Origin: Candidatus Thorarchaeota archaeon | GTDB lineage: Archaea; Asgardarchaeota; Thorarchaeia; Thorarchaeales; Thorarchaeaceae | Direction of reading: 5' to 3' | DNA: 46,424 nucleotides | Assembly: GCA_016933575.1 (NCBI GenBank) | Contig: JAFGAR010000160.1 | Coordinates: 1-46,424, forward strand | In this document: one piece after another, positions 7,322 through 28,303 of the stretch | Layout: each line of letters starts with the position of its first letter | Numbering within the stretch: position 1 is the first letter of the stretch | Notes under the pieces: model-generated | What the model saw: the letters and a program-made list of their open reading frames with translations, nothing else | The model's database searches: none | What the model was told of the DNA's origin: nothing | Program-made: the position numbers and the translations under genes

Positions 7322-7369
7322 GGGTGTGCAACTCTACTCATCCCTAAAATATGGTACTATTTTGATGCT

Positions 7370-8164
7370 TCAATCCCTTTTCTTGGCAGCATTCCGAGCT
7401 ATGAGACAAGCCACAGATCCTCCACCAAGTCCGTTTCCAATATTTACAACCGCGAGTCCTGGGGCACAGGATTGTAGCATCGAGGCAAGCGCAGTTTCTC
7501 CTGCGCCTCCATATCCATATCCCACAGGTACTGGCACTCCTATAACTGGGATATCAACTAGTGAGGCAAGAACCGTAGGAAGCGCCCCTTCCATTCCTGC
7601 GAAGACTACAACCGCATCCACTTTTTCCTCAATGATTCTCATCACAGGTTCGATTATTCTATGAATGCCTGCAACTCCAATATCGTATAATGTGAGAGAT
7701 TCGACCCCCATAATCCTCGCTATTGCTACTGCTTCCTCTGCATAGACAACATCTGAAGTGCCAGCAGTTATGATAGCAATCTTTCCTTGCTTTTGCGGTT
7801 CACTCCATTTTTTGTCATGAACTAGAACCGTAAGATGATCATCATCCCCACTCACATCGAAGTGATATTCGTTCATTTCCTGTTGAAGAGTTTCTAATTT
7901 GGCTTGTTGAACTCTTGTTAGTAGGGCAAATTCCTTTCTTGAGACTATCTTCTGAACGATTTGAATCAGGTTCTTGATACTCTTTGTTTCTGCAAGAACC
8001 ACTTCGGGAATCCCATTCCTTTCTTCCCTGTTTAGATCGATCATGCCAATCTGTCCAACCGCTGTCAATGAGAGCGTACGCAATGCTTCTTCTGCCTCCT
8101 CAACTGATAGATCTCCTGACTTCATTGCCTCTAAGATGTCGCGAGTGGATTTCATGGCAATCAC
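7370..8164 (-). CDS. larB: Nickel pincer cofactor biosynthesis protein LarB (PurE-like)
   Basis: R..R.GIPEVV..E.K, TAGTSD, DIGVAGIHR, AGMEGALP, VPVPVGYG, LQSCAPGLAVVNIGNG. Confidence 0.92.
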   Translation of the reverse strand: MIAMKSTRDILEAMKSGDLSVEEAEEALRTLSLTAVGQIGMIDLNREERNGIPEVVLAETKSIKNLIQIVQKIVSRKEFALLTRVQQAKLETLQQEMNEYHFDVSGDDDHLTVLVHDKKWSEPQKQGKIAIITAGTSDVVYAEEAVAIARIMGVESLTLYDIGVAGIHRIIEPVMRIIEEKVDAVVVFAGMEGALPTVLASLVDIPVIGVPVPVGYGYGGAGETALASMLQSCAPGLAVVNIGNGLGGGSVACLIARNAAKKRD

Positions 8165-9614
8165 GTAGTCCTAGGCGTACGCTAGACGCTTATCAAGATG
8201 GCTTTATGGTTTCTTGTGATTTGCGGCAAATCTCAAGATCCCGGAGCGAGTAAAATGTATACATGTACTGCTATAGTCGAGTAAATGAAGTATGAGTCCA
8301 AGTACATGTTCTCCAAATCTTTTGATAACTATACGTTTACCCACTACATTCAGATAGTAGAATAGCAACAAGGAAAAGGGCGTTATATGGAGTATCTGCT
8401 CCCAGTACACGTATGTTTTACGAGTACAGAAGTTAGTACACGCTATAGTGTATGAATACACGTTTATCCATTATCGATCGCTAGATCTTAGTTTAGAATG
8501 ATGGATCATTACGTTGATTCTATCAGGAACTACATGCCATCACTGGTATTTCATTCTCTGTAATACCCTGAAGCTACAGGTCTGCAACACCTTCTTGGAG
8601 TCCTATGGTGCGCTTGTCTTAGAATATGTCATAATTCTCAAGTCTGTTGGTTCTGTGATTGATTCTCTTCGATTTCTAGCCTGTATGCTTTCTAGCAGAA
8701 ATTTGCATAAACTATTACACTCTTTTGCACAAATAAATGTAAAATTATAAAAATTCCTTCCCTCAATTTTATGTTAGGCTATATAATTAGATGCACGCTT
8801 GAGTTAATAGTAAATGTACTATATGGTACATATTTGTACCATGCAGACATTTATTTACAATTAATTTACTTGTTATAATAATATATATACTAATAAGCAG
8901 GTATTCAATATAACCTCGGTGCTGGAAGAAAGAATCTCTTTCGATGGTTTTTTCTTCTCACCCAACACATCGCCATATACTCAGTTACTGTATCATATAC
9001 TCTGCTCGATTATTTTGTATGAAAATAACCCTGATTATCCTCGAAAAAGAGTACCAATACACAGTAATTGAGTATGGATTTCAATGCACTCGGGGTGAAT
9101 GGGAGATATCTGTATTTGAAAACCGAATACGCCTAATCCGGAGAGCTAAGGATATGAGCTACTCTATCGCTTGAAGTCTTTCAGATCCTACGATATTATA
9201 CTGCAAAGAACATTTATGAAACTCATTGCTTGATATATTAGATTTCCTTTGATTATGTGATATTATTACCTATTAGTAGGAATATAAAACAAATAATTAC
9301 AAATACATTTGATATTGGAGTGGAAATCCGGATTAACTATGATGAATTCTACCGAAGGATTTCATCGAAAAGTTGTGTTAATCAAGTGGTGGGGATAAGG
9401 GCTCACTATCCGATTTATTGATTGAAATTGAGGGATAAAACAGAGTAGTATGTTGGAGAATATGAAGTCACAAGTTCATTTTTATACCATCTATGATTTG
9501 TCTAGATGTGTCTCAGATACGCTAAGTTTAACTAAGACCATGCTCACAATGAAAAGCATGCATGTGTAAGCTGGTTCAAGTTATTCACATAGCGATCATA
9601 GGTAGGAAAACCCC
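8165..9614. promoter_or_regulatory. Long AT-rich divergent intergenic region with repeated GTAC-containing motifs
   Basis: No convincing ORF in 1.45 kb; AGTACAYGT-type motifs at 8259-8466; AT-rich tract ~8700-8910; inverted repeat ATGGTACA-TATT-TGTACCAT at 8823-8842. Confidence 0.55.
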
Positions 9615-9977
9615 ATGGTATCTATATTCATAATCGATGATGAACCGATTCTTCACAGGCTGTACAAGGATGTGTTCGCGATCAAAGGTCACGAGGTGGT
9701 CGCAGATGCATATGACGGTGAAGAGGCTGTTCAGAAGTATCATGAAATGGATCCCAAACCTGATGTACTAATTCTTGACCATCGCATGCCTAACAAAGAC
9801 GGCTTAGAGGCCATGAAGGAGATACTCAACATAGAGCCTGCCGCCAAGATAGTCTTCATCAGTGCTGATGCCAATGTTCGAGAAGAAGCAATGAAGAATG
9901 GTGCTATCAGTTTTGGACTCAAGCCTGTCACCATTCGGCATATGTTGGACTTGGTTGAAACAGCTGTAACAAATTGA
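9615..9977 (+). CDS. Stand-alone CheY-like response regulator receiver
   Basis: IIDDE, LILDHRMPNKDG (phospho-Asp), ISA, KP: all canonical residues present. Confidence 0.95.
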   Translation: MVSIFIIDDEPILHRLYKDVFAIKGHEVVADAYDGEEAVQKYHEMDPKPDVLILDHRMPNKDGLEAMKEILNIEPAAKIVFISADANVREEAMKNGAISFGLKPVTIRHMLDLVETAVTN

Positions 9978-10023
9978 TTCATTTAGAAAAACGACAATTA
10001 GAATCATAGACCCAACTGAATAG

Positions 10024-10392
10024 GTGAAACCTTTGAGAGTGGTGATTGCTGGTGATGTCCCCCTTCTAAAATCACTAGTAAGAATGGCAATTGAGGAAGC
10101 TGGGTATACGGTTATCGGTGAACCTGACAATGTGGAAGAACTATTAGCCATCTGTAGCTCCCATAAGGTCGGAATAGTGCTCCTTGACCTTTCTATCTCT
10201 GATTCTGAACGGATGAGAGTCATTGAGAAGATCCTGGATATCGACATGTACACTTCAATCATCGCAATATCAGAATTTGTCGAAGATGATAACGATCAAG
10301 TCCTATTTGCTGGAGCTAGAGGATTCCTACAGAAACCTTTCTCCATGTTCGACCTTATTGATATGATGAAGAAGGTTGAGCCAATTCTTTGA
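10024..10392 (+). CDS. Stand-alone receiver domain, atypical
   Basis: Receiver pattern VVIAGD, LLD, IS, GARGFLQKPF. The first acidic-pocket Asp is Gly and the P..DG loop is missing. Confidence 0.85.
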   Translation: MKPLRVVIAGDVPLLKSLVRMAIEEAGYTVIGEPDNVEELLAICSSHKVGIVLLDLSISDSERMRVIEKILDIDMYTSIIAISEFVEDDNDQVLFAGARGFLQKPFSMFDLIDMMKKVEPIL

Positions 10393-11145
10393 TCACTCAG
10401 GCAATCGTGCATCAGGATAGACTACTATTCCGTCGTTCTGTATTCGGAACATCACTGGTTTCATGACATGATTCGCTCCTCGTAACTTCACGACTCGGAG
10501 CGTGCGAATGTAATCCCCAGTGGAATAGATCATATCGAGTTTGATGACTCCATCTGAGATGAAGTATGGCATCTCATCATTCTGTGCTCCGGATAGCGTT
10601 CGAAGTTCGTGTGTCAGCAATATCGTTGAATCTTGAGATATTAGCTCTCTCATAAAACCGTAGACCATTTGTCGCACTTCGAATCGATTTCCTGCGAATT
10701 CTAGCAATGGACCTAGGCCATCGATAACAATATGCGATGCATTTGTTTCATTGGCTTTTTGCTTGACTAAGTCTGCCAATCTAGGCACTGTGAAGGGTTT
10801 CTCCCGAAAAAGAGGATGCTCAAATGCAATTAGGTAGTCATATCCTGATTCTCTTGGAACCAGACGCAATGTGCCACTTAGTATGCTCAGTTTCTTCTCC
10901 TTTATTGCAGTTTCAGGGTCCCATCCAAATGCCTGCATATCCTCCATGATGATATCTGAGGATTCATCAAGTGAAAGCAGTACTGCGGTTCCACCTCTAC
11001 GGATTGCATCAAAGATGAAATGCCAACAAATGATGCTCTTGCCTGTTCCAGGACCTCCTGCTATGAGCATCGAACGACCCTTGACATACCCCCCATTCAA
11101 TACCTTGTCTAGTCCCTCAATCCCACTACTGATTCTTTCCTTCAC
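10393..11145 (-). CDS. Single-domain KaiC-like (RAD55/RecA superfamily) ATPase
   Basis: SSGIEGLDKVLNGG, Walker A GGPGTGKS, Walker B IVIDG, DGVIKL, R.LRVVKLRG. Confidence 0.93.
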   Translation of the reverse strand: MKERISSGIEGLDKVLNGGYVKGRSMLIAGGPGTGKSIICWHFIFDAIRRGGTAVLLSLDESSDIIMEDMQAFGWDPETAIKEKKLSILSGTLRLVPRESGYDYLIAFEHPLFREKPFTVPRLADLVKQKANETNASHIVIDGLGPLLEFAGNRFEVRQMVYGFMRELISQDSTILLTHELRTLSGAQNDEMPYFISDGVIKLDMIYSTGDYIRTLRVVKLRGANHVMKPVMFRIQNDGIVVYPDARLPE

Positions 11146-11307
11146 CTTTCTGTCTCCTCAAGGAACACGTAGTCTATCATAGTTTAAGATATATTATTTG
11201 TTAGCGTAGCCTATTTAGGCGAACAAAACTACTAGAACCCTTTTGATTGCATCTCTTGGGTCATGTGGTTGCTTACTACATATCAGGCGAGAGAGTGAAG
11301 AGGAATA

Positions 11308-12894
11308 TTGACTGATAGTCCTGTGATTCCAGAATTTGCAATGTATGAGGACCGTATAACGAAGTCCGAGAGGAAAGAGATCGCTAACCGTCTATCTGTA
11401 GGATTTCGAACAGGAAAGGATCGTTTCCTTCACTTCTCAGATATCCTTTTGGAGTACATTGGAAGTGGAGAATGGACTAACCTAAGTGATGGCTTTCTCG
11501 CAATGTGTGCAAAAGCTGCATACCTACGAGGTATGTATGGATACAATCAGCTTCTTGCGAAAGGAAGTGAGAATATTCTCTGCAAAGGATATGCTGCAGC
11601 ATCATACTGCAGGCAGAGCTTGGATCCTCGGTGGTTGAACAATCTTAGGAACTATGTCAATCAGGTGTGGCAGTCCAAAGATTACATCGCTTTTGCTGAA
11701 TTGTCAGGACAACTCGCATCAATATTGATTGACTTGGGTTATACTGAAAGAGCCAAGACCGTTGCATCGGAGAGCATTGAAAAAGTCACCCAAGCTACTT
11801 CAAAGAACATAGCGATACGAAATAAGGTACAAGCAGCTCTTTTACGGCTTCGGATTCTGATGGCCAATGTGGATATCCAAGCAGGAGCGCGTGATGAAGC
11901 TTTGGTCAGACTGGATTCGGCAGAAGATACAGCTCGACTCCTGAATCACGACCTCGCTTTGACTGATGTCAGATATTATCGTGCTAAGATTCTTGAAGAA
12001 TCCCAAGAATACGATCGAGCAATGGATCTCCTGAATGCAGCTCTAAGGAAGTATGAACGAATGGGGTATCTTCAGGGTGTAGCTGATTCCAAGAACCTGC
12101 AAGGTGTCGTCCTCATGGAACGCGGATTCCATCAAGAGGCACGTGATCACTTTGAGGATATCCTCATTATTCAACAGCGATTGAACGATCAAGTTGGTCT
12201 AGCAAGAACCTTGATCAATGTGGGTGAGATCGATAGAGGGCTAGGTCAATTCGATCAGATGGAAACATACAACCAGAGAGCCTTGGAAATCAGTCAAGAA
12301 GCTGAATATATGCGTGGTATAGCAATATCAAAAATCAATCTTGGAGATATCGCTTTCCAAAGGGGTGACTTTGACAAAGCAATGCGGTACTATCAAGAGA
12401 GCATGGAAGTCGTCGAATGCTCCGGTATGAAGGACCTCCGCAATCTCATTGGCTTCCTCCTAGCTGACCTGCTGTTCGTACAAGAAAAAGCAGACAAAGC
12501 AATAGAAGCGTATGAAAGGGCGAGAATCAACGCTGAAGATGCCAGCTATCCTACCGAGGTCTTCAATGCAGAAGTCAGTGTAATCATAACTCAATTCGAA
12601 ACCGGTCGAGCAGTAGATTCCAGCCTAGCGAAGAAGATTGGGGATATTCTCGGGAATACAGATGCGTGGAAAGCCGCATCTGATTCCAGTATGATGAGAA
12701 ACCTGAGAGCTACGATATTTCAAGATAGATCTATTGAGGGTGGGATGTGCATCTTCTATGATCGCGAGAAGAATTTTGAATGCAGGGTGGACAGACAATA
12801 CTCTAGGATGGGATGTACTGGTAACCTATTCTGGAAAGGGATGATGTGTCCTTACTTCATCGAGTTTCTCGAGAAGCTTGGTGGTAATTCATAG
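11308..12894 (+). CDS. Tetratricopeptide repeat protein with C-terminal four-Cys domain
   Basis: About 40-aa helical repeats (VADSKNLQGVVL, LARTLINVGEID, IAISKINLGDIAFQRGDFDKAMRYYQES); C-terminal Cys cluster. Confidence 0.9.
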   Translation: MTDSPVIPEFAMYEDRITKSERKEIANRLSVGFRTGKDRFLHFSDILLEYIGSGEWTNLSDGFLAMCAKAAYLRGMYGYNQLLAKGSENILCKGYAAASYCRQSLDPRWLNNLRNYVNQVWQSKDYIAFAELSGQLASILIDLGYTERAKTVASESIEKVTQATSKNIAIRNKVQAALLRLRILMANVDIQAGARDEALVRLDSAEDTARLLNHDLALTDVRYYRAKILEESQEYDRAMDLLNAALRKYERMGYLQGVADSKNLQGVVLMERGFHQEARDHFEDILIIQQRLNDQVGLARTLINVGEIDRGLGQFDQMETYNQRALEISQEAEYMRGIAISKINLGDIAFQRGDFDKAMRYYQESMEVVECSGMKDLRNLIGFLLADLLFVQEKADKAIEAYERARINAEDASYPTEVFNAEVSVIITQFETGRAVDSSLAKKIGDILGNTDAWKAASDSSMMRNLRATIFQDRSIEGGMCIFYDREKNFECRVDRQYSRMGCTGNLFWKGMMCPYFIEFLEKLGGNS

Positions 12895-12962
12895 CTACAA
12901 AGCGACACCACTTATGTATATAAGGTGATTATATCAAATGCTCTTCACTAGGGGATCGTTGC

Positions 12963-14348
12963 ATGAGTACTACCGGTGGAATCCCTCCAAGCATAGAGGA
13001 AGTGCTGTCAGCCCAGAATAGTTTCATCTTGGTAGTACTGGGATCACCTGGTACAGGCAAGTCATTATTTGTACAAGAGATACTACGGAAATTCGATAAT
13101 TCTGTGATGATCATCACGAGTGCAGAGAATTATACGACAATAAACCAATATCTGTCTAAGGAAATCGATGGTTGGGAAAATCGGCATGTCACAAAGTCAT
13201 TTTCAAAGAAGATGGCGGGAGAGATGGCAGAGGAAGCGGTATTCGATCAACATATACAACAGATGCTTCAATTGGATAGTACCCCACCCACTGGCGATAT
13301 TGTGATTATTGACTCTTGGACTGATTTCATCGAACCGCTGGATACTACTCAAAGATATTTGACACAGCAAACATTGATCCATTCAGCTCGGAATGAGAGG
13401 AAGAAGCTAGTTCTCGTCACAGAAGGTAACTGGCAAGACCAGAAATCACTCTCGTTATTTCATTCAGCTGATGGAGTGATAAAACTCGAAAAGATTCGAG
13501 ATAATCAACGGATGTATAGACAGGTAGTTATCGAGAAGATGCGATCTCATCCCATAAACCAGGATTCCTTCTTGTTCACTCTTCATCATGGCAGATTTAC
13601 ATACATACCTTGGTATCAACATGAATATCCCGCCATAACCGTAGAAAGAGACCCAATCCCAGATGCTTCTCCTGAGTTTATGTCTACAGGGAATGCTAGT
13701 CTGGACCATTTGCTGTCTGGAGGATTTAAGAAAGGACATCTCACTTTGGTTGAAGTGGATGACCTCTCAGTACCCTATCTAGAAACGATATACATTCCCT
13801 TTCTTTCGAACCACCTGCAACAAGGACGACCTGCCATAATTCTGCTCCCTGAAGGCTGGTCACCTGAATCATTCTCAAAGAGTCTTACTCAGTTTGTTGA
13901 CAAGTCCCTTATTGAGGAACAGCTGGTGTATTTCGGTCGCCAAGCCTTAGGGACTCACTCCAACACCCGTGGAATCGATTTGGATCCTTGGAAGACTCTT
14001 CAAGAGATTCGATATGAATCAGGTGTCTTAGAACGGAAGTTCGATCATGAAGTAACAGAATTATTTGCTCTGGACACCTTGGAGAATATGTATGGTGCAA
14101 CTAACGTGAGAAGTCTAATGGCGGAGATCTCAGCTTCATTGTCCTCAACTCAACGCACAACAATATCCATTTTGAGTAGAGACCAGGAGATCAGGAGCGA
14201 GTCTATCTCACATCATGTTCATCTTAGAGTTCAGGAAATCAGTGGTGTGCTAAGTGTCTGTGGTGTCAATCCTAGAACGAACTATCTAGCAGTTCGCCAG
14301 ATACTGTCCAGCGGATTTCTTGATTACGATTTGCTACCGATTGTATAG
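12963..14348 (+). CDS. Two-domain KaiC/GvpD-like P-loop ATPase (second domain degenerate)
   Basis: N-domain has GSPGTGKS, IIDSW, ADGVIKL, IEKMRS. C-domain begins STGNASLDHLLSGGF but has no Walker A. Confidence 0.88.
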   Translation: MSTTGGIPPSIEEVLSAQNSFILVVLGSPGTGKSLFVQEILRKFDNSVMIITSAENYTTINQYLSKEIDGWENRHVTKSFSKKMAGEMAEEAVFDQHIQQMLQLDSTPPTGDIVIIDSWTDFIEPLDTTQRYLTQQTLIHSARNERKKLVLVTEGNWQDQKSLSLFHSADGVIKLEKIRDNQRMYRQVVIEKMRSHPINQDSFLFTLHHGRFTYIPWYQHEYPAITVERDPIPDASPEFMSTGNASLDHLLSGGFKKGHLTLVEVDDLSVPYLETIYIPFLSNHLQQGRPAIILLPEGWSPESFSKSLTQFVDKSLIEEQLVYFGRQALGTHSNTRGIDLDPWKTLQEIRYESGVLERKFDHEVTELFALDTLENMYGATNVRSLMAEISASLSSTQRTTISILSRDQEIRSESISHHVHLRVQEISGVLSVCGVNPRTNYLAVRQILSSGFLDYDLLPIV

Positions 14349-14358
14349 GTGATGCATT

Positions 14359-14736
14359 ATGACGAAGAACAAGATCCTGGTAGTGGATGATGAAGAAATA
14401 ACAACTGAATTGGCGAAGAAATTCTTGGAGCGCCATGGATTCGATGTCATTTGCGCCTATGATGGCGAAACCGCTTTGGAGCTAGCTGTATCACAAAGAC
14501 CTGATTTGATCCTTTTGGATGTGATGCTTCCAAAAATTGATGGTTTTGAAGTGTGCAGAAGAATCAAGAGAATGCAGGAATTCAAGTCGACACCAATTCT
14601 TCTCTTCACTGCGAAGGGGCTAAGCAAGGATATCAAAGAAGGCAAAGAGGCAGGAGCTGACGAATATATTATCAAACCATTTTCCGGAAAGGCACTGGTT
14701 GCTACCATAAAGAAGCATCTAAGATATGAGGAATGA
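14359..14736 (+). CDS. Stand-alone response regulator receiver
   Basis: VVDDE, LLDVMLPKIDG, FTA, GADEYIIKPF: canonical. Confidence 0.95.
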   Translation: MTKNKILVVDDEEITTELAKKFLERHGFDVICAYDGETALELAVSQRPDLILLDVMLPKIDGFEVCRRIKRMQEFKSTPILLFTAKGLSKDIKEGKEAGADEYIIKPFSGKALVATIKKHLRYEE

Positions 14737-15431
14737 GAGGAATCGATCTGATGACAGGAACCCCTGTGGAGAATCATTTGGCCTCTACAATAGTCTACAA
14801 TCTATTGAATCGGCCTCCCAGAGGGTATGTCTATCTCGTTATGGCATCTCAAGAAAGCCACTATGACCTCTTCATGACGACAATCATACGTAGTGCCCTT
14901 GACAACAAAATGAAGACACTCAATGTTGTAACTGAGGCTCGGAATCGCCAATTGATGGAGGATATGACAAAGATACAATCAGAGGACTTCCAGATACTTG
15001 AAGTCAGCTATGGACAGAAGATTCTAGGCAATCATACGTGTTCACCGCATCTTCATGAGATTAACATCATGATGCGAAGCCTAAGGAATGTCATTAACCC
15101 CAAGGTTGTTACGTTCGAAGCTTTGACTCCTTTACTGATTGATTTCTCTGCTCGAGATGTGGTTCAGTTCTTCAAGGAAAGTGTTGAAGAGAGCATCAAG
15201 AACGGATCAATTGAGTTCTACCTTATTCATGCGGACACAGCTGACTCGGTCACTATGAACCAGCTGTTCTCACTTGCTCAAGGCATTATCACACTAACGA
15301 CATCACGTGGCAAGAACTACCTTACAGTAAAGAAAGCAACAGGTATCGAGATGCCCTTCAATCCGATTGAGTATGTACCGAGTATGCAGGGTTCTGATCG
15401 AACGAGATGGGGTATCGAACTCGAATGGTAG
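14733..15431 (+). CDS. Inactivated KaiC/RecA-fold protein
   Basis: Strand/helix pattern matches KaiC-like domains (VVTFEALTPLL, AQGIITL, LTVKKATG) but there is no P-loop GKT/S. ATGA overlap with the upstream receiver. Confidence 0.7.
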   Translation: MRGIDLMTGTPVENHLASTIVYNLLNRPPRGYVYLVMASQESHYDLFMTTIIRSALDNKMKTLNVVTEARNRQLMEDMTKIQSEDFQILEVSYGQKILGNHTCSPHLHEINIMMRSLRNVINPKVVTFEALTPLLIDFSARDVVQFFKESVEESIKNGSIEFYLIHADTADSVTMNQLFSLAQGIITLTTSRGKNYLTVKKATGIEMPFNPIEYVPSMQGSDRTRWGIELEW

Positions 15432-15432
15432 C

Positions 15433-16125
15433 TTACTCGAAGTCGATTTGGATTCCTTCATCATCTAAATCGTCTTTCTTCATGGAATGAGAGAGGCGCT
15501 CTTCGAATATGTTCAGCACGTCTTCAAGTGGCTTCTCTGACGTATCTCTATCATCCACCGCAACTGGATTGATATGTTGTCTGACAAGCCTACAGCTCTC
15601 ATCATCCCAAGAGCACTCCTCCATGATCTCTTGTATTTTCCTGATATAGTAGCCTCTTTGATTGATCAGCTGCAAACTTCTATCTTCTAACGCACTTATT
15701 TGTCGATTAATCTTCTCAATTTCCTGGAGGAGGACACGTACTGCTCTCACATCATAGCTCTCTTTAGGTATGGATATTCGTGCGCGGATGGTTGTGATCC
15801 GTGTTTTATGTGGACGTAAATGAACAGCAAATGAGTTTGGCAGTATGGTGGTGGAAAGCCCAAACCCCGAACGCAATTTGTAGTATGTTCTCTCAGGGCC
15901 AAGACTTGTTTCACCTGCCTCGGTTTCCACGATCCTCGCATTCTCGAGGACCTCAAGATGCTTGATGATGACACGTGACGTGAAGCCAAGAGCTTTGCTA
16001 AGCTCATAAGGATAGTAAGGTCTCTGTGCTAGCAATCGAAGGATTCTCCTACGAGTGATATGACCTAGCGCTTTGAAAACAGTGTCTAGGTAATCTGTAT
16101 CCTTTCCCGAGCTGCTCAATTCCAT
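15433..16125 (-). CDS. ArsR-like winged HTH regulator resembling archaeal heat-shock repressor Phr (COG1777)
   Basis: LGHITRRRILRLLAQRPYYPYELSKALG...KHLEVLE...GPERTYYKL...ILPNSF plus C-terminal coiled coil, matching the Phr architecture as recalled. Confidence 0.85.
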   Translation of the reverse strand: MELSSSGKDTDYLDTVFKALGHITRRRILRLLAQRPYYPYELSKALGFTSRVIIKHLEVLENARIVETEAGETSLGPERTYYKLRSGFGLSTTILPNSFAVHLRPHKTRITTIRARISIPKESYDVRAVRVLLQEIEKINRQISALEDRSLQLINQRGYYIRKIQEIMEECSWDDESCRLVRQHINPVAVDDRDTSEKPLEDVLNIFEERLSHSMKKDDLDDEGIQIDFE

Positions 16126-16161
16126 TCACCGTCCGTAGATAATGTCCTAATTCTGGTATCA

Positions 16162-16317
16162 CTATAGATACTCAATCGAGTTCCATATATTGGATAAGAA
16201 CACTAACCATTCTCTGTAGAGACCGTTGTCGAACCAGAGCCCTTGTTCAAGGCTGTTCGTTTCGCTCCCTTGATACTCTGGCTCAGTATCTATGTATACT
16301 CTTTGAATCATGTTCAT
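16162..16317 (-). CDS. Putative 51-aa small protein upstream of the Phr-like gene
   Basis: Manual translation MNMIQRVYIDTEPEYQGSETNSLEQGLWFDNGLYREWLVFLSNIWNSIEYL; lies between the promoter/operator and the regulator gene. Confidence 0.45.
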   Translation of the reverse strand: MNMIQRVYIDTEPEYQGSETNSLEQGLWFDNGLYREWLVFLSNIWNSIEYL

Positions 16318-16345
16318 CCCTTTTTCAGTTCCACTTATCGGAATA

Positions 16346-16391
16346 CTAGTGACTAAGTGGTCACTAGAACTAGTGAATATTTGGTATATAA
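16346..16391 (-). promoter_or_regulatory. Promoter (TTATATA) with overlapping double-palindrome operator
   Basis: CTAGTGAC-N6-GTCACTAG (16346-16367), TCACTAG-AA-CTAGTGA (16361-16376), minus-strand TTATATA at 16385-16391. Confidence 0.65.
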
Positions 16392-16423
16392 GCTTTGAGA
16401 AATATGTGTGTGATGACAGTCAC

Positions 16424-16756
16424 CTACTCATATATGCCGGATTCACATTCAGGTGATGATTCACTCTTTTTCCGATCAGGGAAGTCTATCAATCCCTTTG
16501 CTGCTGACCTATGTCGGTATTTCTCAAGAAGAGTATCTCCTTTCTCATAAATTGGTCCATGACCAGTAAGGTATCCCTCAGACACCCCTTCCTTATTGGA
16601 TATCACAGGTCTGGAACCTATCATCAGAAGATGGCGTAGGAATTGAAGATCTGTGACCTTTTGCCCCATCCTTCGTTGATATCGCATCTTCTCTTCTTCC
16701 CAAGTAAGAATATCGTGCTCGGTCAAGCCCTTGAATAGCTTGTTCTTAAGATGCAT
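16424..16756 (-). CDS. Hypothetical protein (possible ribbon-helix-helix-like N-terminus)
   Basis: AGGAG RBS upstream; beta-helix-helix pattern ending TDLQFLRHLL (weak). Confidence 0.6.
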   Translation of the reverse strand: MHLKNKLFKGLTEHDILTWEEEKMRYQRRMGQKVTDLQFLRHLLMIGSRPVISNKEGVSEGYLTGHGPIYEKGDTLLEKYRHRSAAKGLIDFPDRKKSESSPECESGIYE

Positions 16757-16844
16757 TGCAATTTCTCCTGGTCAACATCCTAAGAAAGTTAACCTCATCT
16801 AGACTATAATTCGATGTATCACAGGAGTAATACTGATATTTTCG

Positions 16845-17963
16845 CTAAGGTGAATTGTTTACCTTGTTCTTTGTCGTTGCAGCAGCAGTGTCCTTTTCTT
16901 CCTTTCCTTCTACAGGTTTGAAAGAAGCTGCTGGGCTATGATAGAGAGACGAAGACTTCCTCTTCTGGAATTGCGTAACTGCTCTCCATGTTGCGGACTT
17001 ATCAGCTATCACTCCTAGCTTCTTGATTTTGAACATGATCACAGCTGACACGTCGATCAATATGATGTTCACTGCCAAGAGAGCTAATGATCCTAGCCCA
17101 ATTTGTAGACCTGCCAATGATCCATTGATAAGTCCAAGAGTAATCATCATTCCTACATTGACTGCTGGAGGCATCAATGCTGCAGAGATTGCAACACCTA
17201 CCAGTGAAGACATGTCCCCCTTTGTCACTGATACAGCGACAGCCGCTCCCGAAAAGATGGCGACGCCTACATCCAATGGTGAGAATGCTCCTCTTCGAGT
17301 TATCTCTGTCAGGAATACAGGTGCCCATGCTGAAGTATTCCATTGTCCCTCTATAACGGTCATCAATGGAGCTTCAATGTAGAGGATAGGAGTGAGTACA
17401 CCCATGATGATACCTATTCCAAAGCTCAGTCCAAGAGCTACGAGCTCTGTCGTTGTACCTTTTACGAACAGCTGCCTATCACCAACAACATATCCTAGAG
17501 CCACAGCTAGCATGGGTCCCATGAGTGGTGAGAGAAGCATAGATGCTACGATGATAGTAATGTTATTCTGAAGTAATCCGAAACCCGCCATTACTGCAGC
17601 GAAGATGATGAATGCGATGAAATCAAAGCTTAGAGAAGCCTGTTTCTTTACATTGTCATAGATTTCCTCTACAGCTAATGTCGCTTCTCGTTGGATTCTC
17701 TTCTCTTGTGTGTCCTCACTTACTTCCCTTGGTAGGGATGCCTTGAGATCCCAAATATCTATGAAACCAAATTCCACGCCTACACCTCGACTCTTCAAGC
17801 CTTCCAATGTATCGTTGATAGTGTCATCAGCTATCCTGAATTGCAGTAGATGTGCGTTATCGGTGGTGAATCTTACGACGTTCTTGATATTCAGAACATC
17901 AACAAGAAAATCAAACACCGCTTCGGTCTTCTCATAGGGAACGGTAACCTGAACTTGTTTCAC
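16845..17963 (-). CDS. TIGR00341 / DUF389 family membrane protein
   Basis: IIVASMLLSPLMGP and LVGVAISAALMPPA signatures; soluble N-terminal domain. Confidence 0.9.
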   Translation of the reverse strand: MKQVQVTVPYEKTEAVFDFLVDVLNIKNVVRFTTDNAHLLQFRIADDTINDTLEGLKSRGVGVEFGFIDIWDLKASLPREVSEDTQEKRIQREATLAVEEIYDNVKKQASLSFDFIAFIIFAAVMAGFGLLQNNITIIVASMLLSPLMGPMLAVALGYVVGDRQLFVKGTTTELVALGLSFGIGIIMGVLTPILYIEAPLMTVIEGQWNTSAWAPVFLTEITRRGAFSPLDVGVAIFSGAAVAVSVTKGDMSSLVGVAISAALMPPAVNVGMMITLGLINGSLAGLQIGLGSLALLAVNIILIDVSAVIMFKIKKLGVIADKSATWRAVTQFQKRKSSSLYHSPAASFKPVEGKEEKDTAAATTKNKVNNSP

Positions 17964-18136
17964 TGACTTACAGCCCCACAGAATTACAGGAACACCCCAA
18001 ACAGGGCTATTAAACTTATTCTAGAGCACATAATATCCGAATTGTAATACAGGTATTATCAGGATATGATTCTATATGTCACTAGCATCACATTTTTTGG
18101 GGATTCAGATACAGTTTGAGCTGACTGTGATCAACA

Positions 18137-18799
18137 ATGGGCATAATTGAGATCTTGGCAATATGGTTCGGACTCTCTCTAACAGGAGCTTTGGCTCCCG
18201 GTCCTCTCTCTGCTGCAGTCGTCATGCAGTCAAGCAAGCACGGTCGACTATATGGAATATTACCGATGGTCGGACATGCGATAGTTGAATTGGGGATAGT
18301 AGCTGCGATCATAGTCAGTGTTCAGATATTTTCATTTGATCAACTTGCTACTAGCCTAATGATTGGTTTTGGGGGGATTGTAATCGTATTCTTTGGTGGC
18401 TTGGCTTTGAAGGATTATCGTTTCAAGACATCATCTGAGGAGAAGGAGAATAGCGCGGAATCAAAATCACTATCTAGCGCAGCTGAAGCAACGACTCAAG
18501 GAGCTCTCGTGAGTATCCTCTCTCCGTACTTTCTATTATGGTGGGCTGCAATTGGTCTCAGTAATGTGACACTCTTAATAGGCGAGCTTCAAGTAGGAGT
18601 CGGCACTGTCTTTCTTGCTGGGGTGTTGATCTATCTCGTTCACATATCAACTGACTTCCTGTTTGGAGCTTTTCTTACTGTTGGGACTGATGCAGCTAAG
18701 AAACGTACTACTTATGGTGGAGTCAATTGGATAAATGTTGGAATTGGAATATTCCAGATCATACTTGGCATCTATTTCGTCTTCGTTGCACTCACATAG
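18137..18799 (+). CDS. LysE family translocator
   Basis: GALAPGP, GHAIVE and SPYFLLWW motifs; about 6 TM. Confidence 0.88.
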   Translation: MGIIEILAIWFGLSLTGALAPGPLSAAVVMQSSKHGRLYGILPMVGHAIVELGIVAAIIVSVQIFSFDQLATSLMIGFGGIVIVFFGGLALKDYRFKTSSEEKENSAESKSLSSAAEATTQGALVSILSPYFLLWWAAIGLSNVTLLIGELQVGVGTVFLAGVLIYLVHISTDFLFGAFLTVGTDAAKKRTTYGGVNWINVGIGIFQIILGIYFVFVALT

Positions 18800-18850
18800 G
18801 TCTTCAAAAGGAATATCTGGCTCTCCGTTTTGACGTATCAGGTGACTAGT

Positions 18851-19459
18851 ATGGTGAAAGTGGTCCTATCAGGGTTTGAACCATTCGATGGATACTCAAT
18901 TAATCCTTCAGAAGAGCTAGTGAGAATGCTTGATGGTAAGAAAATCACCACGCATGAGATCCGTGGCATAGTGCTACCCCTCGATTATGGAAAAGCTGAC
19001 AAACTACTGAAGGATTTCGTAGCCAAAGAGAGACCAAGGTATGTGATCTGCTGCGGACAGGCTAACCGTCCCATCATAACCTTGGAGTACGTTGGGTTGA
19101 ACATTCTGAATACCGAGAGAGAGGACAACTACGGATACAAACCCACATCCCACATTATAGATCCATCTGCTCCTGCAGCGTACTTCTCCACAATTGATCT
19201 ACATAGTATTGTAAGAAAGCTGAAGGATAATGGCATTCCTTCTGGGGTCAGCTATCATGCTGGAACCTATGGGTGCAATTGGATACTCTTCACTATGCTT
19301 CATTGGTTGTCAATGAGCAATATTCAAGCAAAGGTGGCATTCGTTCATGTACCACCCCTGCCTGACCAGTCTATAGAGAAGAACGATGCCTCGCTAGCCA
19401 CTATGCCTCTAGGTGTCCAGGTAGATGCGTTGCGGATAATCATCGAGTCGCTTCACTGA
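18851..19459 (+). CDS. pcp: Pyroglutamyl-peptidase I (C15)
   Basis: GFEPF..NPS, catalytic Glu (TLEYVG), AGTYGCN (Cys), FVHVP (His). ATG 18851 preferred. Confidence 0.93.
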   Translation: MVKVVLSGFEPFDGYSINPSEELVRMLDGKKITTHEIRGIVLPLDYGKADKLLKDFVAKERPRYVICCGQANRPIITLEYVGLNILNTEREDNYGYKPTSHIIDPSAPAAYFSTIDLHSIVRKLKDNGIPSGVSYHAGTYGCNWILFTMLHWLSMSNIQAKVAFVHVPPLPDQSIEKNDASLATMPLGVQVDALRIIIESLH

Positions 19460-20205
19460 ATGTCCTGCTTCTGCCATATTTGTGGGAATGCCTTCAGAAC
19501 AGCGACTGCTATGATTAGACTGATGATGATCGCTATAGTTCTCTCAAAGAGCATCAAGGGGAATGCCACGAAACCGAAAAATGCAGGTGGCAGATGCAGG
19601 ATATAGACTGCACCCAATGTCATCATGGAGAACTCAGTAATCGTTCCAATAAGTAGGAAGGGGATCAGTTTGAGAATCCCTCGCTTACTGATGTCACCAA
19701 TTTCCAATTGTGTATCTGTCAGCTGAAGACCCAAGGCGACAAATAGTGCGAGTACGTAGTAGAGGACAAACCACCAAGCTAGATGGTTCTCAATCTCATA
19801 CAGGATGATTATCATGTAGATATATCCAGCTGTCAACCCAGATGCAGGAATCCATTTTCCGCGGATTTGCGGTGTTGCACAAAGGCCTGTAAGTAGTCCT
19901 GAGATACCCGGTCCAAGAATCATTATTGGTATGACCTGGAAGAGACCACCTGAACCACCGATAAGGAAGACAATCACACCACCGACCAAGCCGAATAGAC
20001 TACCTCGCCAAGGTCCTAGCAGAACACCGAACAGTGGTGCTATGACTAGTGTTAGACTTATCGATGCTGTGGCACCGATGAAGACGCTAATTGGAATCAA
20101 AGAGCCCAAGCCATAGAGAGCTGCCAATATAGCTCCTATAGCAAACATAGTTGTGTCCGAACGACCCTCAACATAGGTGAGGTCAAGGCTATCGCTATCA
20201 CTCAT
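19453..20205 (-). CDS. ECF transporter S-component-like membrane protein
   Basis: AIGAILAALY, APLFGVLLGPWRG signature; multiple TM helices. Substrate unknown. Confidence 0.7.
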   Translation of the reverse strand: MSDSDSLDLTYVEGRSDTTMFAIGAILAALYGLGSLIPISVFIGATASISLTLVIAPLFGVLLGPWRGSLFGLVGGVIVFLIGGSGGLFQVIPIMILGPGISGLLTGLCATPQIRGKWIPASGLTAGYIYMIIILYEIENHLAWWFVLYYVLALFVALGLQLTDTQLEIGDISKRGILKLIPFLLIGTITEFSMMTLGAVYILHLPPAFFGFVAFPLMLFERTIAIIISLIIAVAVLKAFPQIWQKQDIQ

Positions 20206-20319
20206 GATCTTTACCTCTATGCTATGGGGTCATCCCACAGCCAAATTCATTCCCTTATGATAGTTGTGATTGCATTACAAAATCCGTACACTTCTAACAC
20301 CAAACAGAGTTCAGTGCTT

Positions 20320-21579
20320 TCAAGGTTCATCCGACAGATGTAGTGCGATATTGGCAATTGTCCCTTGTTTCCAATCATCAGGAACTCGGTTCTCGAACCA
20401 GAGATAACCTCCAAAATCCTCCAGGAGTCTCATGACGATGCTAAGCCCTAATCCAATGCCATCGGTACTCTCTGTTAGGAATCTACCAGACATTTTTGGT
20501 TTAAGCTCTTCAGGCATACCCATTCCTTTGTCAATGATTCCGACCCGTATGATGTTCGAGTCAGATTTCCATTCGTCTATCTCAATTACGATTTCATCAT
20601 CTCTATCATTCATAGATTTTATGGCGTTTGTTATCAAGTTTTGAAACACATCATGAAGAAGTTCATTGGCAAGGACATGGTGCTGTTTCTCTGATCGCGA
20701 TTTAACTTGAATATCCAGCTTCTTCTCTGGGAATGCCGTTCTGATAGTTGAGATGCTCTCTGCTATTGTGCTTTCTAGATTACATGGTTCTAGATCTTTG
20801 TCTCCTTTTGCAGTCAACACTCGTCTTACTCGATTTAGGAGGTTACTCGCAAAGCTTGCTTGATTCATAGCATCCTGCAGGATGGGGTATAACTTTGAAT
20901 GGTCATCCCATTTCATTTCCATCAGTTCTAATGCTATTGATAAATTTCCAATTGAACCCCGAATATCATGAAACAGTAAATCAAGAAGGAGGTCCGATCT
21001 CCTTCTTGCGCGATTACTATCTTCAAGTAGCATCGCATGCTGAATCGATAGACGCAGTGGAATGACAAACTCTCTTACAGCTTCTAGATATCTCTCTATT
21101 CTATCTGGTATTATTACGTTACTCACTTCAATGACCATTCGTGGAGTTCCTTCTAGGGTATAGAATAGAATTGACTTAGCATCTAGCTCATCGAGATGGT
21201 GTTTAATTTCATTACTAATGGATCTGTCAGGATTATGTATGTTGTAGTAGATTTCACCTTGCTCGACCACATAATTATAGAAATCATTGTTGACAAGATA
21301 CCTTGGAACCCATTTGCTTTGATTCACGAAGTATCGCAATGAGAAGAGTTCCCAAATACCGCTATGAAATTCTATAGCTAGTGAAGGTATTCCTCCCGTG
21401 AGTGTTGCTATTTCTTGCAGGATGGCTGCTAGGACGGTATTTGGATCAGAGCTTCTGAGAAGCTCGCCAAGGATGTATCGAAGCTGCGTGTAGTAGATTG
21501 AATTTCGCTCTAATTCACGCTGCTTTTCCTCTAGCTGTGGATCGTTTTTTGAGCTATCTTCTTTATGTCCTCCGCTCAC
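20320..21579 (-). CDS. Soluble sensor histidine kinase (coiled coil + GAF-like + HisKA + HATPase_c)
   Basis: H-box LFHDIRG, N-box FQNLITNAIK, G1 DKGMG, G2 GIGLGLSIV; no TM segment. GTG 21579 overlaps the upstream TGA (ORF track start 21594). Confidence 0.92.
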   Translation of the reverse strand: MSGGHKEDSSKNDPQLEEKQRELERNSIYYTQLRYILGELLRSSDPNTVLAAILQEIATLTGGIPSLAIEFHSGIWELFSLRYFVNQSKWVPRYLVNNDFYNYVVEQGEIYYNIHNPDRSISNEIKHHLDELDAKSILFYTLEGTPRMVIEVSNVIIPDRIERYLEAVREFVIPLRLSIQHAMLLEDSNRARRRSDLLLDLLFHDIRGSIGNLSIALELMEMKWDDHSKLYPILQDAMNQASFASNLLNRVRRVLTAKGDKDLEPCNLESTIAESISTIRTAFPEKKLDIQVKSRSEKQHHVLANELLHDVFQNLITNAIKSMNDRDDEIVIEIDEWKSDSNIIRVGIIDKGMGMPEELKPKMSGRFLTESTDGIGLGLSIVMRLLEDFGGYLWFENRVPDDWKQGTIANIALHLSDEP

Positions 21580-22594
21580 TGATAGACTCCCCATTTATCT
21601 CTGGATTCGGATATTTTCTGAAGTACATTATCTGGAACTGCGCTTGGGATATCTCCATGGTGGTCACATATGATATACCCCCCGCCAGATGCTGCCTCAT
21701 CAATGCATCTTTTGACCTCTGATTCAGCTCTTTCTTCGCTCCAATGAGTCATTGAGATATTGTCCAGATTTCCAATTAGAATCAGTTTCTTTCCATATTT
21801 CTGCTTTATTTCCCTGAGATTATCTGAATTGGATACAACAATTCCGGGAACTCCAACCTGCTCGATCAATGTAGGTATTAGTGTGGGAGTTTCACTACCC
21901 GCCATTGCAAATACAGCAGCTCCGTTTACAGATTTGTAATATTTCTTATCAGCTGCAAGGGACAGATGTTTGTACTCTGTCAACTTCATAATATGAGTTG
22001 ATGAAACAGGGTTGAAGAATGCTAACGCATGGAGTCCATCCTCGAAAAAGCTATTGGATAGATCAAGAGTATAATCGACTAAGTATTCTACGATTTGCTT
22101 TGCAATATCGGGTGTGTCTACGATGCACTCCATCCATGTTTCAAATCCAAATAACATCACTGGTAATGATAGAGGTGCGATTACTGCTGTAATAATGGGA
22201 ATCTCGGAACCTTTCTTCTCTACCATCATTCGATGTGCTTGGTGGACTATATCAAAGGTATGATGGTCGCTATCAGGTAGCTCAGCAGCAAGAAGTGCTT
22301 CTCCAGAGTCAAAGACAGGTCGTCCTGATTCAGGAGGACCGAACTGCTTGTGTAGTGTTTCTCCCCCAAATGCTTCGTACTCCTTAGCGGCATAGAAGAA
22401 TGGGTAAAGACAATCATGCTGAAATCTCTCCTGCAGGAGAATCTGGCCTTTTACTACATTCTCTGCATTTCCATAGTACTCATGCGAACTCATTCAAGTA
22501 TCTTTGCACCATGCTGAGTCATCAAGAGGAAGAGTGGAACCTTATCTGGCTCTTCAAAACTGACCGCTTTTACAAACCGTTCCAGAGCTTTCAC
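21576..22594 (-). pseudogene. UroD/MtaA-family protein, split by a 1-nt frameshift near 22494
   Basis: GTG 22594 gives MKALERFVKAVSFEEPDKVPLFLLMTQHGAKILE* (typical ER...PD.VP start of this family). The remainder (LIGNLD, GGGYII) continues from ATG 22493 in another frame. May be an assembly error rather than a true pseudogene. Confidence 0.8.
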
Positions 22595-23241
22595 TAGTGC
22601 TCCACTCCTACAAGATGCATACATTCTCTCGCAACGACGAGTGCAGTAGGTGCTGATGCATCAGCTCCTGTATGTTCGAACAGCTCGGGATCTATTGTGA
22701 AAGGAGCTCCTCCTACGAGAAGCTTGGGTTTCTTAGTCCATTTTGATGCGTCTATGGATTCCTTCAGCTTTTTTAGCTGCAGAACTGAGTTCATCATTAG
22801 CGCGGATACAGCTATAATATCCGCATTGTATTCTTGAGCATTTGATATGAATTTCTCAATGCTTACATTGACCCCAAGATCATACACCGCGAAGAATGGC
22901 ATGAGAAACTTCTTCACTAAATTCTTTCCAAGTGAATGATAGTCATCACTCATTGTCCCAAGAATGATCGTACCCAATTTAGCTGAACCCTCACCATTCT
23001 CATATTCAAAGCGATTGACAACTTCCTCGATAATCCTTGAGGCTACATAGATTATTGTTAGAGGGATTTTTTGAACCATCCACCTTCTATCAAGCTCATT
23101 GAGCATCTTCTCGATTACGATGACCATGTCTCGTTTTTGAAGATTGGCTTCGTCGAACCATCTAATGGTCGATTCTCTAAGGCCAGAGAGAACGAAATCT
23201 ATGACTTTGTCTATTTCTCTATCTGAAACGGGGGAACTCAT
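22594..23241 (-). CDS. Cobalamin (corrinoid)-binding protein
   Basis: Helical cap domain plus DYHSLGKNLV (DxHxxG), SALM and VGGAPF. Confidence 0.93.
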   Translation of the reverse strand: MSSPVSDREIDKVIDFVLSGLRESTIRWFDEANLQKRDMVIVIEKMLNELDRRWMVQKIPLTIIYVASRIIEEVVNRFEYENGEGSAKLGTIILGTMSDDYHSLGKNLVKKFLMPFFAVYDLGVNVSIEKFISNAQEYNADIIAVSALMMNSVLQLKKLKESIDASKWTKKPKLLVGGAPFTIDPELFEHTGADASAPTALVVARECMHLVGVEH

Positions 23242-26860: not shown

Positions 26861-26989
26861 GGAACTCCCTAAAACTTCGGCTAACCGAGCTTCTAAAAAA
26901 TGTGCTGAATGAGAAATTGGTATTGGCAAAGCATAACTGTTAAAGGTAAGAGGTGTCCCACGCGGCTCAGGTCCGTGGAGGCATTATCC

Positions 26990-28303
26990 ATGAGTGAATC
27001 CGAAACCTTTGACATTGTTATTATCGGAGCCGGAATCATCGGTGTAGCAACGGCTTATTATCTCCAGAAGAATAACCCTGACAAGAAGATACTTCTGCTG
27101 GATCGGAATCTCGCTGCTGGGCAAGCGAACACAGCCATGAGTGCGGCTGCGGTAAGGAACATGTTCGCTTCATCGACCAACCAGCTTTTGACTGATAGTT
27201 CTGTGAAATTCATCGATCATGTGCAGAATGATATCGGCTACGAGCTCCTCTTCGAGAAATGTGGATACCTCTGGCTCCTCAGTGATTCGCAATTCCATGA
27301 TCCAAGTGTACAGATGTGGATGGAACGAATGAAAGCTTCTGGAATTCACTATAAAGTCTACAATAAGGAGGAGCTGAAGGAAATGATGCCCGGACTCAAT
27401 GTGGACTTCTCGAACAGTGAAGAAGCAGAGCTCATGAATCTGAAAGAGGTCAGCTATGGTCTCTATGGTGGCGACTGTGGCGTTTTGGATCCGACACGCT
27501 ATGTCGAGTACTACCTTGACGAATTCAAGAAGATGAGTTCAGTCAAGCCACGATATGGTGTGAATGTCGAGAAGCTAATCCTTGAAGCTGACCCGAAATT
27601 GGAACTCCCAGGTGAACCCTTCGTGTGGCAGGAAAAGAAGGTAGTTGGAGTGAGGACCAATAAGGGAGATGTCAGAGCAGAATGTGTGGTCCTTGCAACT
27701 GGAGCATGGGCTAATGAGCTCCTCGATCCCATTGGAATGGATAGCAAGACGAAATGCAAGAAGCGACAGCTCTTTGTCGTGCATGGTGACAATCAAGGCC
27801 TCAAGCAACTTCTCAGGACCAAAGGCTTCAACGAGATGGAGATGTGCCCGTTCACGATTCTGCCAAGTGCAGGCGTCTATTTCAGACCTCAGATGCAGGA
27901 AGAAGGATTCTGGATTGGATGTGGTGATAAGCTGGGTAGAGCCTACAAGTATATCCAAACGGATGAGGACTACGTACCTGAAAGCTCCTACTATGAGAAC
28001 AGTATGTTCCCAGTACTATCCGCTTACTACCCTGACTTCTCTTCCACCCGTCCAGTCAACAGCTGGGCTGGAGGATATTGCTATTCACCTGATGCTATTC
28101 CATTCGTCTACTATGAGAATGGAGTTCTTGTAGCTAATGGTGCGAGTGGATCAGGCATTATGAAAGCAGATGCGATGGCAAGGATTGCAGATGCTTTGTA
28201 TAGAGGTCTCCCGGAGGCTGAGCTTTTTGGTGGCAAATCGATTCCATCAGAGGCACTCAGCATTAAAAAGCGTAAAGTGGAAATTGAAAGTGTCGTGATT
28301 TAG
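26990..28303 (+). CDS. FAD-dependent oxidoreductase, DAO / sarcosine oxidase beta / proline dehydrogenase family
   Basis: IIGAGIIG, VVLATGAW, WAG.Y..SPD..P, GASGSGIMK. ATG 26990 follows GGAGG. Confidence 0.92.
   Translation: MSESETFDIVIIGAGIIGVATAYYLQKNNPDKKILLLDRNLAAGQANTAMSAAAVRNMFASSTNQLLTDSSVKFIDHVQNDIGYELLFEKCGYLWLLSDSQFHDPSVQMWMERMKASGIHYKVYNKEELKEMMPGLNVDFSNSEEAELMNLKEVSYGLYGGDCGVLDPTRYVEYYLDEFKKMSSVKPRYGVNVEKLILEADPKLELPGEPFVWQEKKVVGVRTNKGDVRAECVVLATGAWANELLDPIGMDSKTKCKKRQLFVVHGDNQGLKQLLRTKGFNEMEMCPFTILPSAGVYFRPQMQEEGFWIGCGDKLGRAYKYIQTDEDYVPESSYYENSMFPVLSAYYPDFSSTRPVNSWAGGYCYSPDAIPFVYYENGVLVANGASGSGIMKADAMARIADALYRGLPEAELFGGKSIPSEALSIKKRKVEIESVVI

Follow-up and report, generated by a model that had tools for sequence, protein, structure and literature searches.

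On the minus strand of a 46,424-nucleotide contig assigned to a Candidatus Thorarchaeota archaeon (JAFGAR010000160.1, assembly GCA_016933575.1; this whole stretch is called the window below), three genes between positions 20320 and 23241 encode a small corrinoid (B12-binding) protein, a protein of the uroporphyrinogen decarboxylase (URO-D)/MtaA type and a histidine kinase. We propose, with a probability of about 60%, that this trio is a cobamide-state sensor module that feeds a two-component pathway and was built from a corrinoid methyl-transfer pair. The Asgard trio is a reduced and divergent form, without DUF1638, of a cassette that is widespread in bacteria and methanogens. An initial annotation of this DNA had suggested that the first two proteins act as a sensor and not as a catabolic methyltransferase; comparative genomics supports this suggestion, and we infer that the pair physically controls the kinase.

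Loci of the URO-D clade were collected by a pattern scan with one genome per species, which gave at least 533 loci. The best 80 of these were scanned in six frames with purpose-built hidden Markov models (HMMs), and 78 were analysed. Hosts of the clade belong to the Chloroflexota, Thermodesulfobacteriota, Bacteroidota, Spirochaetota, Nitrospirota, Pseudomonadota, Methanosarcinaceae and others. The corrinoid protein is encoded directly upstream of the URO-D protein in 73 of the 74 loci with room for it, and a cassette-specific GAF-like domain follows directly downstream in 68 of 73 loci. This downstream protein contains DUF1638 in 55 and a kinase core in 47 of the 73 loci. A Pfam search of 64 downstream proteins found DUF1638 (46), HATPase_c (35), HisKA (27), PAS (13), GGDEF (11) and receiver (8) domains, and the usual plan is DUF1638 (residues 1–200), a linker, the GAF-like domain (residues ~205–350) and a variable output. 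About one-fourth of the bacterial cassettes lack DUF1638. In approximately ten loci the GAF-like domain comes first, and among these are genes for ~400-aa kinases built like the Asgard ones (L014, L049, L064). Overlaps of stop and start codons persist across phyla.

Among the next genes outward (n = 66), receivers (15) and kinases (13) are the commonest, and the others are unrelated housekeeping genes. The 25 commonest families listed for these 66 genes include no substrate-specific methyltransferase (MT1), no RamA/RACo activator and no pterin methyltransferase. In this neighbourhood search, which the initial annotation had called for, signalling partners therefore prevail over MT1 or activator genes as companions of the pair. 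Because the input is constant, the outputs vary and metabolic partners are missing, the corrinoid/URO-D pair would serve as the stimulus detector and the GAF domain as its reader.

Alternatively, the function of the corrinoid and URO-D-like proteins could be metabolic, the two being a small methyltransferase pair such as an MT1-type demethylase or, as in mlp clusters, a methyl-sulfur/selenide enzyme; the kinase would then be no more than their transcriptional regulator, with a GAF domain that senses something else. URO-D-family enzymes without a coenzyme M (CoM)-type zinc site do include substrate-side methyltransferases, kinase genes frequently adjoin the genes they regulate, and RACo-type activators and another corrinoid protein, all encoded on other contigs, could serve such a pair in trans. 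The O-demethylases OdmB and VdmB, too, have been named as members of the UroD superfamily (PMC10418091). We nevertheless regard a metabolic role as unlikely. A two-step transfer needs a second methyltransferase, and the pair conserves none in the 66 flanking genes. Moreover, one special GAF-like domain is kept while the outputs vary between kinases, GGDEF and other domains, as expected of an input device that is shared, and the stop/start overlaps are maintained across phyla. The outputs in Asgard archaea are single-domain receivers and not DNA-binding regulators.

The trio recurs in metagenome-assembled genomes (MAGs) labelled as Loki-, Thor-, Odin- and Hodarchaea, the last through one Hodarchaeales-labelled protein of the kinase family. 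The closest URO-D homologs, with 47–76% identity, were found in MAGs that bear the labels Lokiarchaeota, Thorarchaeota and Odinarchaeota, and the nearest relative of the window protein is found in a Thorarchaeota MAG (74% identity). On every Asgard contig that we read, a B12-binding protein of 213–217 aa is followed by the URO-D protein and then by a HATPase_c kinase of 394–429 aa, with overlapping or abutting codons. A URO-D ortholog is present in nine of 301 sampled genomes of the phylum, and each of the nine has the complete trio, with the corrinoid gene upstream and a gene for a GAF-type protein downstream. In a quick maximum-likelihood tree, 13 Asgard URO-D proteins form a separate, long-branched and fully supported clade. 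Three other Asgard URO-D proteins (L102–L104) nest among bacterial sequences and have bacterial-type downstream proteins, which suggests that these cassettes were acquired independently by horizontal transfer. Other Asgard families (L102, L103, L104, L105) carry bacterial-type cassettes with DUF1638 and the GAF-like domain, or with the GAF-like domain only.

The corrinoid gene (22594–23241, minus strand) encodes a 215-aa protein with an N-terminal helical cap region and a Rossmann-type B12-binding domain (PF02310, E 4e-19); a MerR-type DNA-binding domain is absent. The DxHxxG motif that had been reported as intact reads DYHSLG in the window. Together with SxL and GG, it is invariant in 27 Asgard and bacterial cassette orthologs (D100, H102, G105, S146, L148, G177 and G178 in alignment A5), as is a tryptophan of the cap region. 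This invariance argues that the protein very probably binds its cobamide His-on, like MtaC or the B12 domain of MetH. Pfam finds no match to the cap domain PF02607 in the window protein; the domain is found in bacterial members of the cassette. Compared with the NCBIfam equivalogs, the protein passes no cut-off (pyl_corrinoid 67 against 215, MtbC 73 against 350).

The second protein shows the URO-D-type TIM-barrel fold (PF01208, E 9e-36) and the C-terminal motif GGGYIICDHHGD. The closest solved structure to its clade is MtaA (4AY7, profile E 3e-21), with true HemE farther away (E 1e-11 and weaker). The initial annotation had noted FAMAG in place of the HxCG of thiol-methylating enzymes. In the alignment to 4AY7, the MtaA zinc motif LHICG, located after strand 6, indeed corresponds to YALAG in the clade and FAMAG in the window, and the His-x-Cys motif is gone clade-wide. 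The cysteine is also missing from the bacterial relatives, which show THFAS or similar sequences, and from a more distant outgroup with LHHTG. The DHHGD sequence also reported for the C-terminal region is present, and the corresponding GGGxIxxDxHG segment of the clade contains no conserved cysteine; the 4AY7 alignment ends before this region. A local search of the C-terminal third of a bacterial family member (P0022:225-343) against PDB sequences gave no MtaA alignment by which to place the third zinc ligand. The NCBIfam models for MtaA, MtbA, CmuA and HemE all fall far short of their cut-offs, both for methyltransferases (MtaA_Meth 66.7 against 400, MtbA 57 against 600, mtaA_cmuA 70 against 235) and for HemE (25.4 against 303 bits).

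Instead, the clade has its own set of invariant residues: Asp61, Cys62 (≥90%), Asn181, Asp311 and His313 (P0004 numbering, alignment A2). Asp61 and Cys62 are part of an HDC motif, Asp311 and His313 of DxHG. Both motifs should lie near the active face of the barrel if the TIM-barrel topology holds, and the five residues might form a different catalytic or metal site that replaces His-x-Cys. The same genome contains a second gene of the URO-D family (G000:C64:13822-14733, 335 aa; L002), which has no corrinoid gene nearby and stands alone between genes for a PolX-type DNA polymerase and a histone-deacetylase-family protein.

The kinase gene (20320–21594, minus strand) encodes 424 aa with a HATPase_c domain (PF02518, E 7e-18). 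The kinase core, comprising the dimerization and histidine phosphotransfer (DHp) helices and the catalytic and ATP-binding (CA) domain, is encoded by 20320–21069. It has the features of a class I two-component histidine kinase: the H-box LLFHDIRGS with His209 and all of the N, G1 and G2 boxes. These boxes are invariant in 15 family members (H209/D210, N319, N323, D355-G357-G359, G381-G383). The protein has no transmembrane segment, and a full-length AlphaFold2 model (predicted local distance difference test, pLDDT, 76) consists of a long helix, an alpha/beta domain, a DHp hairpin and a CA domain, resembling soluble sensor kinases such as HK853 and YF1.

The sensor part of the kinase is predicted to be a GAF domain (21070–21540, residues ~19–175; a long N-terminal helix followed by an alpha/beta domain). 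Residues 1–200 modelled alone adopt a GAF fold (pLDDT 83). The top Foldseek matches are GAF domains, and the listed VIA-align matches are almost all GAF or GAF-like ligand-binding domains, e.g., PDE2A GAF-B with Z 14.3 and a root-mean-square deviation of 2.8 over 158 residues. No Pfam family is matched by residues 1–198 at E values up to 10. When 1.84 billion cluster representatives were searched exhaustively with HMMER, only 15 proteins contained the domain, nearly all of them kinases of 394–429 aa.

To the bacterial cassettes, this domain is connected by profile comparison. With hhalign, the Asgard GAF domain matches the linker and GAF-like domain of bacterial DUF1638 kinases with a probability of 64% (E 6e-5, 148 columns), and one archaeal protein (L044) is weakly matched by both the Asgard GAF and the bacterial GAF-like HMMs. 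The bacterial HMM gives no direct match to the Asgard kinases. We conclude with moderate confidence that the Asgard domain would be a divergent member of the cassette GAF family. DUF1638 is absent from the window kinase, and none was found in the genome, which is 85.5% complete. A complex prediction for the corrinoid, URO-D-like and GAF components of another Asgard trio (L003), each with its alignment, scored 0.20 against a mark of 0.32, which speaks neither for nor against binding. For DUF1638 itself, the sole clue from the literature is a reported genetic requirement, shared with a RamA-like activator, for a split B12-dependent methionine synthase (PMC5764234), and this tie would fit a domain dealing with corrinoid proteins.

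Based on these features, the sensor module could work as follows. The small corrinoid protein would hold a cobamide with the histidine of DxHxxG as lower ligand. The URO-D-like partner, devoid of the His-x-Cys zinc motif, would dock on it and set or gate the state of the cobalt, either methyl-Co(III) as opposed to Co(I)/Co(II), or holo as opposed to apo. In turn, the kinase's GAF domain would read the state of the pair by protein contact and tune autophosphorylation at His209, from where the phosphate would pass to the single-domain receivers of a nearby hub of receiver, KaiC-like and tetratricopeptide repeat (TPR) proteins. In this scheme, the physical coupling, the direction of control, the signal and the receivers are as we infer them. 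The most likely sensed property is the methylation or redox state, rather than cobamide supply or light, since the module always includes an enzyme-like partner whose active-face residues are conserved, and since the hosts are mostly anaerobes of dark habitats. A more specific version seems doubtful to us: the URO-D-like protein would methylate or demethylate the cobamide according to the cellular methyl donor or acceptor or the redox state, and the GAF kinase would read methyl-Co(III) versus Co(I)/Co(II). In that version, corrinoid methyl-transfer chemistry would have been recruited into an enzyme-driven sensor of cofactor state, which in Asgard archaea, Hodarchaeales-labelled MAGs among them, would feed the hub, and the form without DUF1638 would show that the minimal reader is the GAF domain and not DUF1638.

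Supply or light could also be what the module reports, through holo versus apo or photolysed versus intact cofactor, with the URO-D-like protein as a loading or capping partner only. B12-binding domains are proven sensors in CarH and AerR, and the His-on motif is intact in the window. A corrinoid protein of one bacterial cassette, in addition, weakly matches the CarH model (E 1e-9, far below the cut-off). Yet many hosts are, by their record titles, MAGs from groundwater and sediments and members of anaerobic lineages such as sulfate reducers and methanogens, which makes light an unlikely signal, and a strictly conserved MtaA-like partner with invariant residues of its own would be superfluous for simple B12 binding. 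We therefore consider this explanation improbable.

As the initial annotation had stated, no MT1 and no reductive activator is encoded in the window. A genome search for RACo/RamA, MttB and pterin-binding genes gave matches on other contigs or no match, and none on the window contig. One of these other contigs encodes a canonical 229-aa corrinoid protein (cap plus B12 domain) beside a RACo/RamA-type activator (G000:C5:49656-52991; L091), and a second RACo gene is located at G000:C38:13039-13803; TGA codons are reported inside both RACo matches. Such activators could reduce the cobalt of the sensor in trans.

The initial annotation had described three genes with overlapping stop and start codons. 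Three minus-strand genes in the described order are indeed present, as are both junctions: the corrinoid gene's TAG overlaps a GTG at 22596–22592 (CACTAGTGAAAG), and a second GTG, at 21579–21576, overlaps the TGA that ends the URO-D gene (CAGTGAGC). An alternative kinase start, ATG at 21594, lies 15 nt upstream of this GTG and likewise overlaps the URO-D gene. The URO-D gene, however, occupies two frames and not one. The frame opened by GTG-22594 (22490–22594) comprises 34 residues (VKALERFVKAVSFEEPDKVPLFLLMTQHGAKILE) and is closed by TGA at 22492–22490, while the other 305 codons (21576–22493, minus strand; PF01208 profile positions 43–337) follow in a different frame, whose ATG at 22493 overlaps the TGA (ATGA). 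Homologs are uninterrupted and 338–342 aa long. By tblastn, residues 2–34 and 37–340 of the L005 ortholog fall in two different frames of the window. A DNA alignment with six orthologs, all intact, shows that exactly one base is missing in the window gene (CTTGA-ATGAGT, minus strand, 22493–22497); with this base restored, the protein would read ...HGAKILEMSSHEYY... and have an ortholog-like length. Programmed frameshifting was considered and rejected, as there is no slippery heptamer at CTTGAATGA.

The 34-codon piece keeps all family-invariant residues (R6, E15, D17, V19, P20 and G29 in alignment A2) and the 305 codons are open; the lesion is therefore either an assembly error, a very recent inactivation, or tolerated by re-initiation at ATGA, which would yield a 34-aa and a 305-aa product. 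If the 1-nt deletion is real and inactivates the gene, the trio in this genome would be a decaying remnant. We regard this as a serious possibility, although at less than even odds. It would agree with the base missing relative to all six orthologs, with the lack of a slippery heptamer at the frameshift site and with the patchy occurrence of the cassette in Asgard archaea. Random indel errors do not seem to be common here, given that other long open reading frames (ORFs) of this region of the window are intact. On the other hand, neither the 305 codons nor the two neighbouring genes contain any interruption, and their conserved motifs are all present, every invariant residue is retained in the 34-codon piece, and the TGA/ATG overlap makes re-initiation possible. 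A single-base assembly error is also possible, as judged from the assembly alone.

Candidate partners of the kinase are suggested by one relative. On another Thorarchaeal contig (L005), two receiver genes come directly after the trio in the same orientation, and genes for a KaiC-like ATPase and a TPR protein follow them. Orthologs of these four are found in the window at 9615–9965 (86% identity), 10033–10389 (47%), 10402–11142 (65%) and 11308–12879 (55%), and window gene 6128–7321 has its ortholog upstream of the L005 trio. The L005 trio thus heads the receiver/KaiC/TPR hub; in the window, the hub is located ~5 kb beyond the 3′ end of the kinase gene. Because of this position at the head of the hub, the two single-domain receivers encoded on the plus strand at 9615–9965 and 10033–10389 would be the best candidate phospho-acceptors of the window kinase, as far as the gene order of one relative can tell. 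The L005 trio (L005:3922-8252) occupies the place of a long, mostly non-coding gap in the window (7321–9615), upstream of the first receiver. No trio remnants were detected by tblastn in this gap (7.3–9.6 kb).

The origin of the contig also bears on the distribution of the trio. The window contig (C150) is collinear (window 9600–20300) with a contig from a different genus of the same family (G260:C61), with 75% nucleotide identity over 10.7 kb, versus 64–68% identity, in pieces only, to the bin's own genus. In addition, the bin holds a second block of DUF389, LysE, peptidase C15 and 250-aa ORF genes without the trio (C166; L114, G000:C166:74000-82000), and this copy is closer to the bin's own genus than the copy in the window. 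The window contig may therefore be mis-binned; the contamination of the bin is 6.9%. None of 26 genomes of the same genus contains the trio, which says little if the contig belongs elsewhere. A recent gain or loss of the trio, considered on the basis of these 26 genomes, was dropped because the contig is closer to another genus.

Several points weigh against a sensor module. The cassette is rare in Asgard archaea, as the nine of 301 genomes indicate, and the homology between the Asgard and bacterial GAF domains is a moderate profile match (64%). Adjacency of trio and receivers is seen in a single relative. The interrupted URO-D gene means that the window copy may not work, and a small enzyme pair co-transcribed with its own regulator would yield similar gene neighbourhoods.

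Beyond the kinase gene, a 250-aa ORF (19453–20205, minus strand) belongs to no family and shows a weak match to S-components of energy-coupling factor (ECF) transporters (E 0.0024). Its orthologs accompany the flanking block with or without the trio, and it is therefore probably not part of the cassette. At 26909–28303 (plus strand), the window encodes a DAO-family FAD (flavin adenine dinucleotide) oxidoreductase, whose counterpart L003:3784-5100 is the divergent neighbour of the L003 trio. A divergent ORF of the same size (~438 aa) takes this position beside the trio in L011 and L012. In the window, oxidoreductase and trio are separated by an insertion that comprises a 134-aa ORF and a gene for a 1021-aa beta-helix/NosD-like surface protein. 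The best NCBIfam matches of the oxidoreductase are sarcosine and N-methyl-amino-acid oxidases, far below cut-off; a connection to methyl-group metabolism is only a guess.

The trio can be compared with several known systems. MtaC/MtaA and MtbC/MtbA of methylotrophic methanogens likewise comprise a small His-on corrinoid protein with DxHxxG, SxL and GG, encoded beside a TIM-barrel partner of the URO-D fold. MtaA differs in its His-x-Cys zinc motif, where the trio has FAMAG or YALAG; the trio has no MT1 or RamA nearby, scores far below all NCBIfam cut-offs for MtaA, MtbA, MtaC and MtbC, and is joined to a signalling protein and not to a catabolic enzyme. With the bacterial and methanogen cassette, the Asgard trio shares the gene order, the overlaps, the URO-D clade without zinc motif, the corrinoid family and, where the output is joined, a domain of the GAF type. 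It differs from the bacterial cassette by the lack of DUF1638, a GAF domain linked by profile comparison only, and a URO-D protein in a separate clade.

A B12-binding domain is the regulatory sensing element also in CarH/LitR and AerR/PpaA. These are single, light- or B12-responsive proteins that act on transcription via DNA (CarH/LitR) or a repressor (AerR/PpaA), whereas the trio combines a separate corrinoid protein, an enzyme-like partner and a histidine kinase without any helix-turn-helix domain. In LuxP-LuxQ and TorT-TorS, for example, a sensor kinase depends on a separate partner protein that binds the ligand. There, as proposed for the trio, accessory proteins encoded beside the kinase detect the stimulus, but these are periplasmic binding proteins coupled to membrane kinases, in contrast to a cytoplasmic cofactor protein, an enzyme-like TIM barrel and a soluble GAF kinase. 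Type 1 mlp clusters resemble the trio in combining MtaA-like UroD-superfamily and corrinoid proteins outside methanogenesis, and are widespread in anaerobes (PMC10418091). They contain two to three Mlp methyltransferases and a Ram/RACE activase, have been read as serving methyl-sulfur/selenide metabolism, and are described without mention of a sensor or two-component gene (PMC10418091, Kountz and Balskus). The trio has one URO-D gene, a signalling partner and no activase, with RACo encoded on other contigs.

Our literature search found no published description of the corrinoid/URO-D/DUF1638-GAF cassette, nor of a B12 protein with a methyltransferase-like partner as an input to signalling. In this cassette, corrinoid-protein parts are put to an undescribed use, and its minimal variant is found in Asgard archaea. 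If the proposed function is correct, a B12 protein together with a methyltransferase-like partner would be an input for two-component and cyclic di-GMP signalling in hundreds of anaerobes and in Asgard archaea. This would assign a function to DUF1638 and to many genes annotated only as "uroporphyrinogen decarboxylase family protein". In genome annotation, neither methylotrophy nor heme synthesis should be concluded from the genes of this cassette. The Asgard form is the smallest, consisting of three genes with a single GAF domain and without DUF1638, which makes it a good minimal system for biochemistry. In Thorarchaeia, it would provide the input for a receiver/KaiC/TPR hub that otherwise has no kinase.

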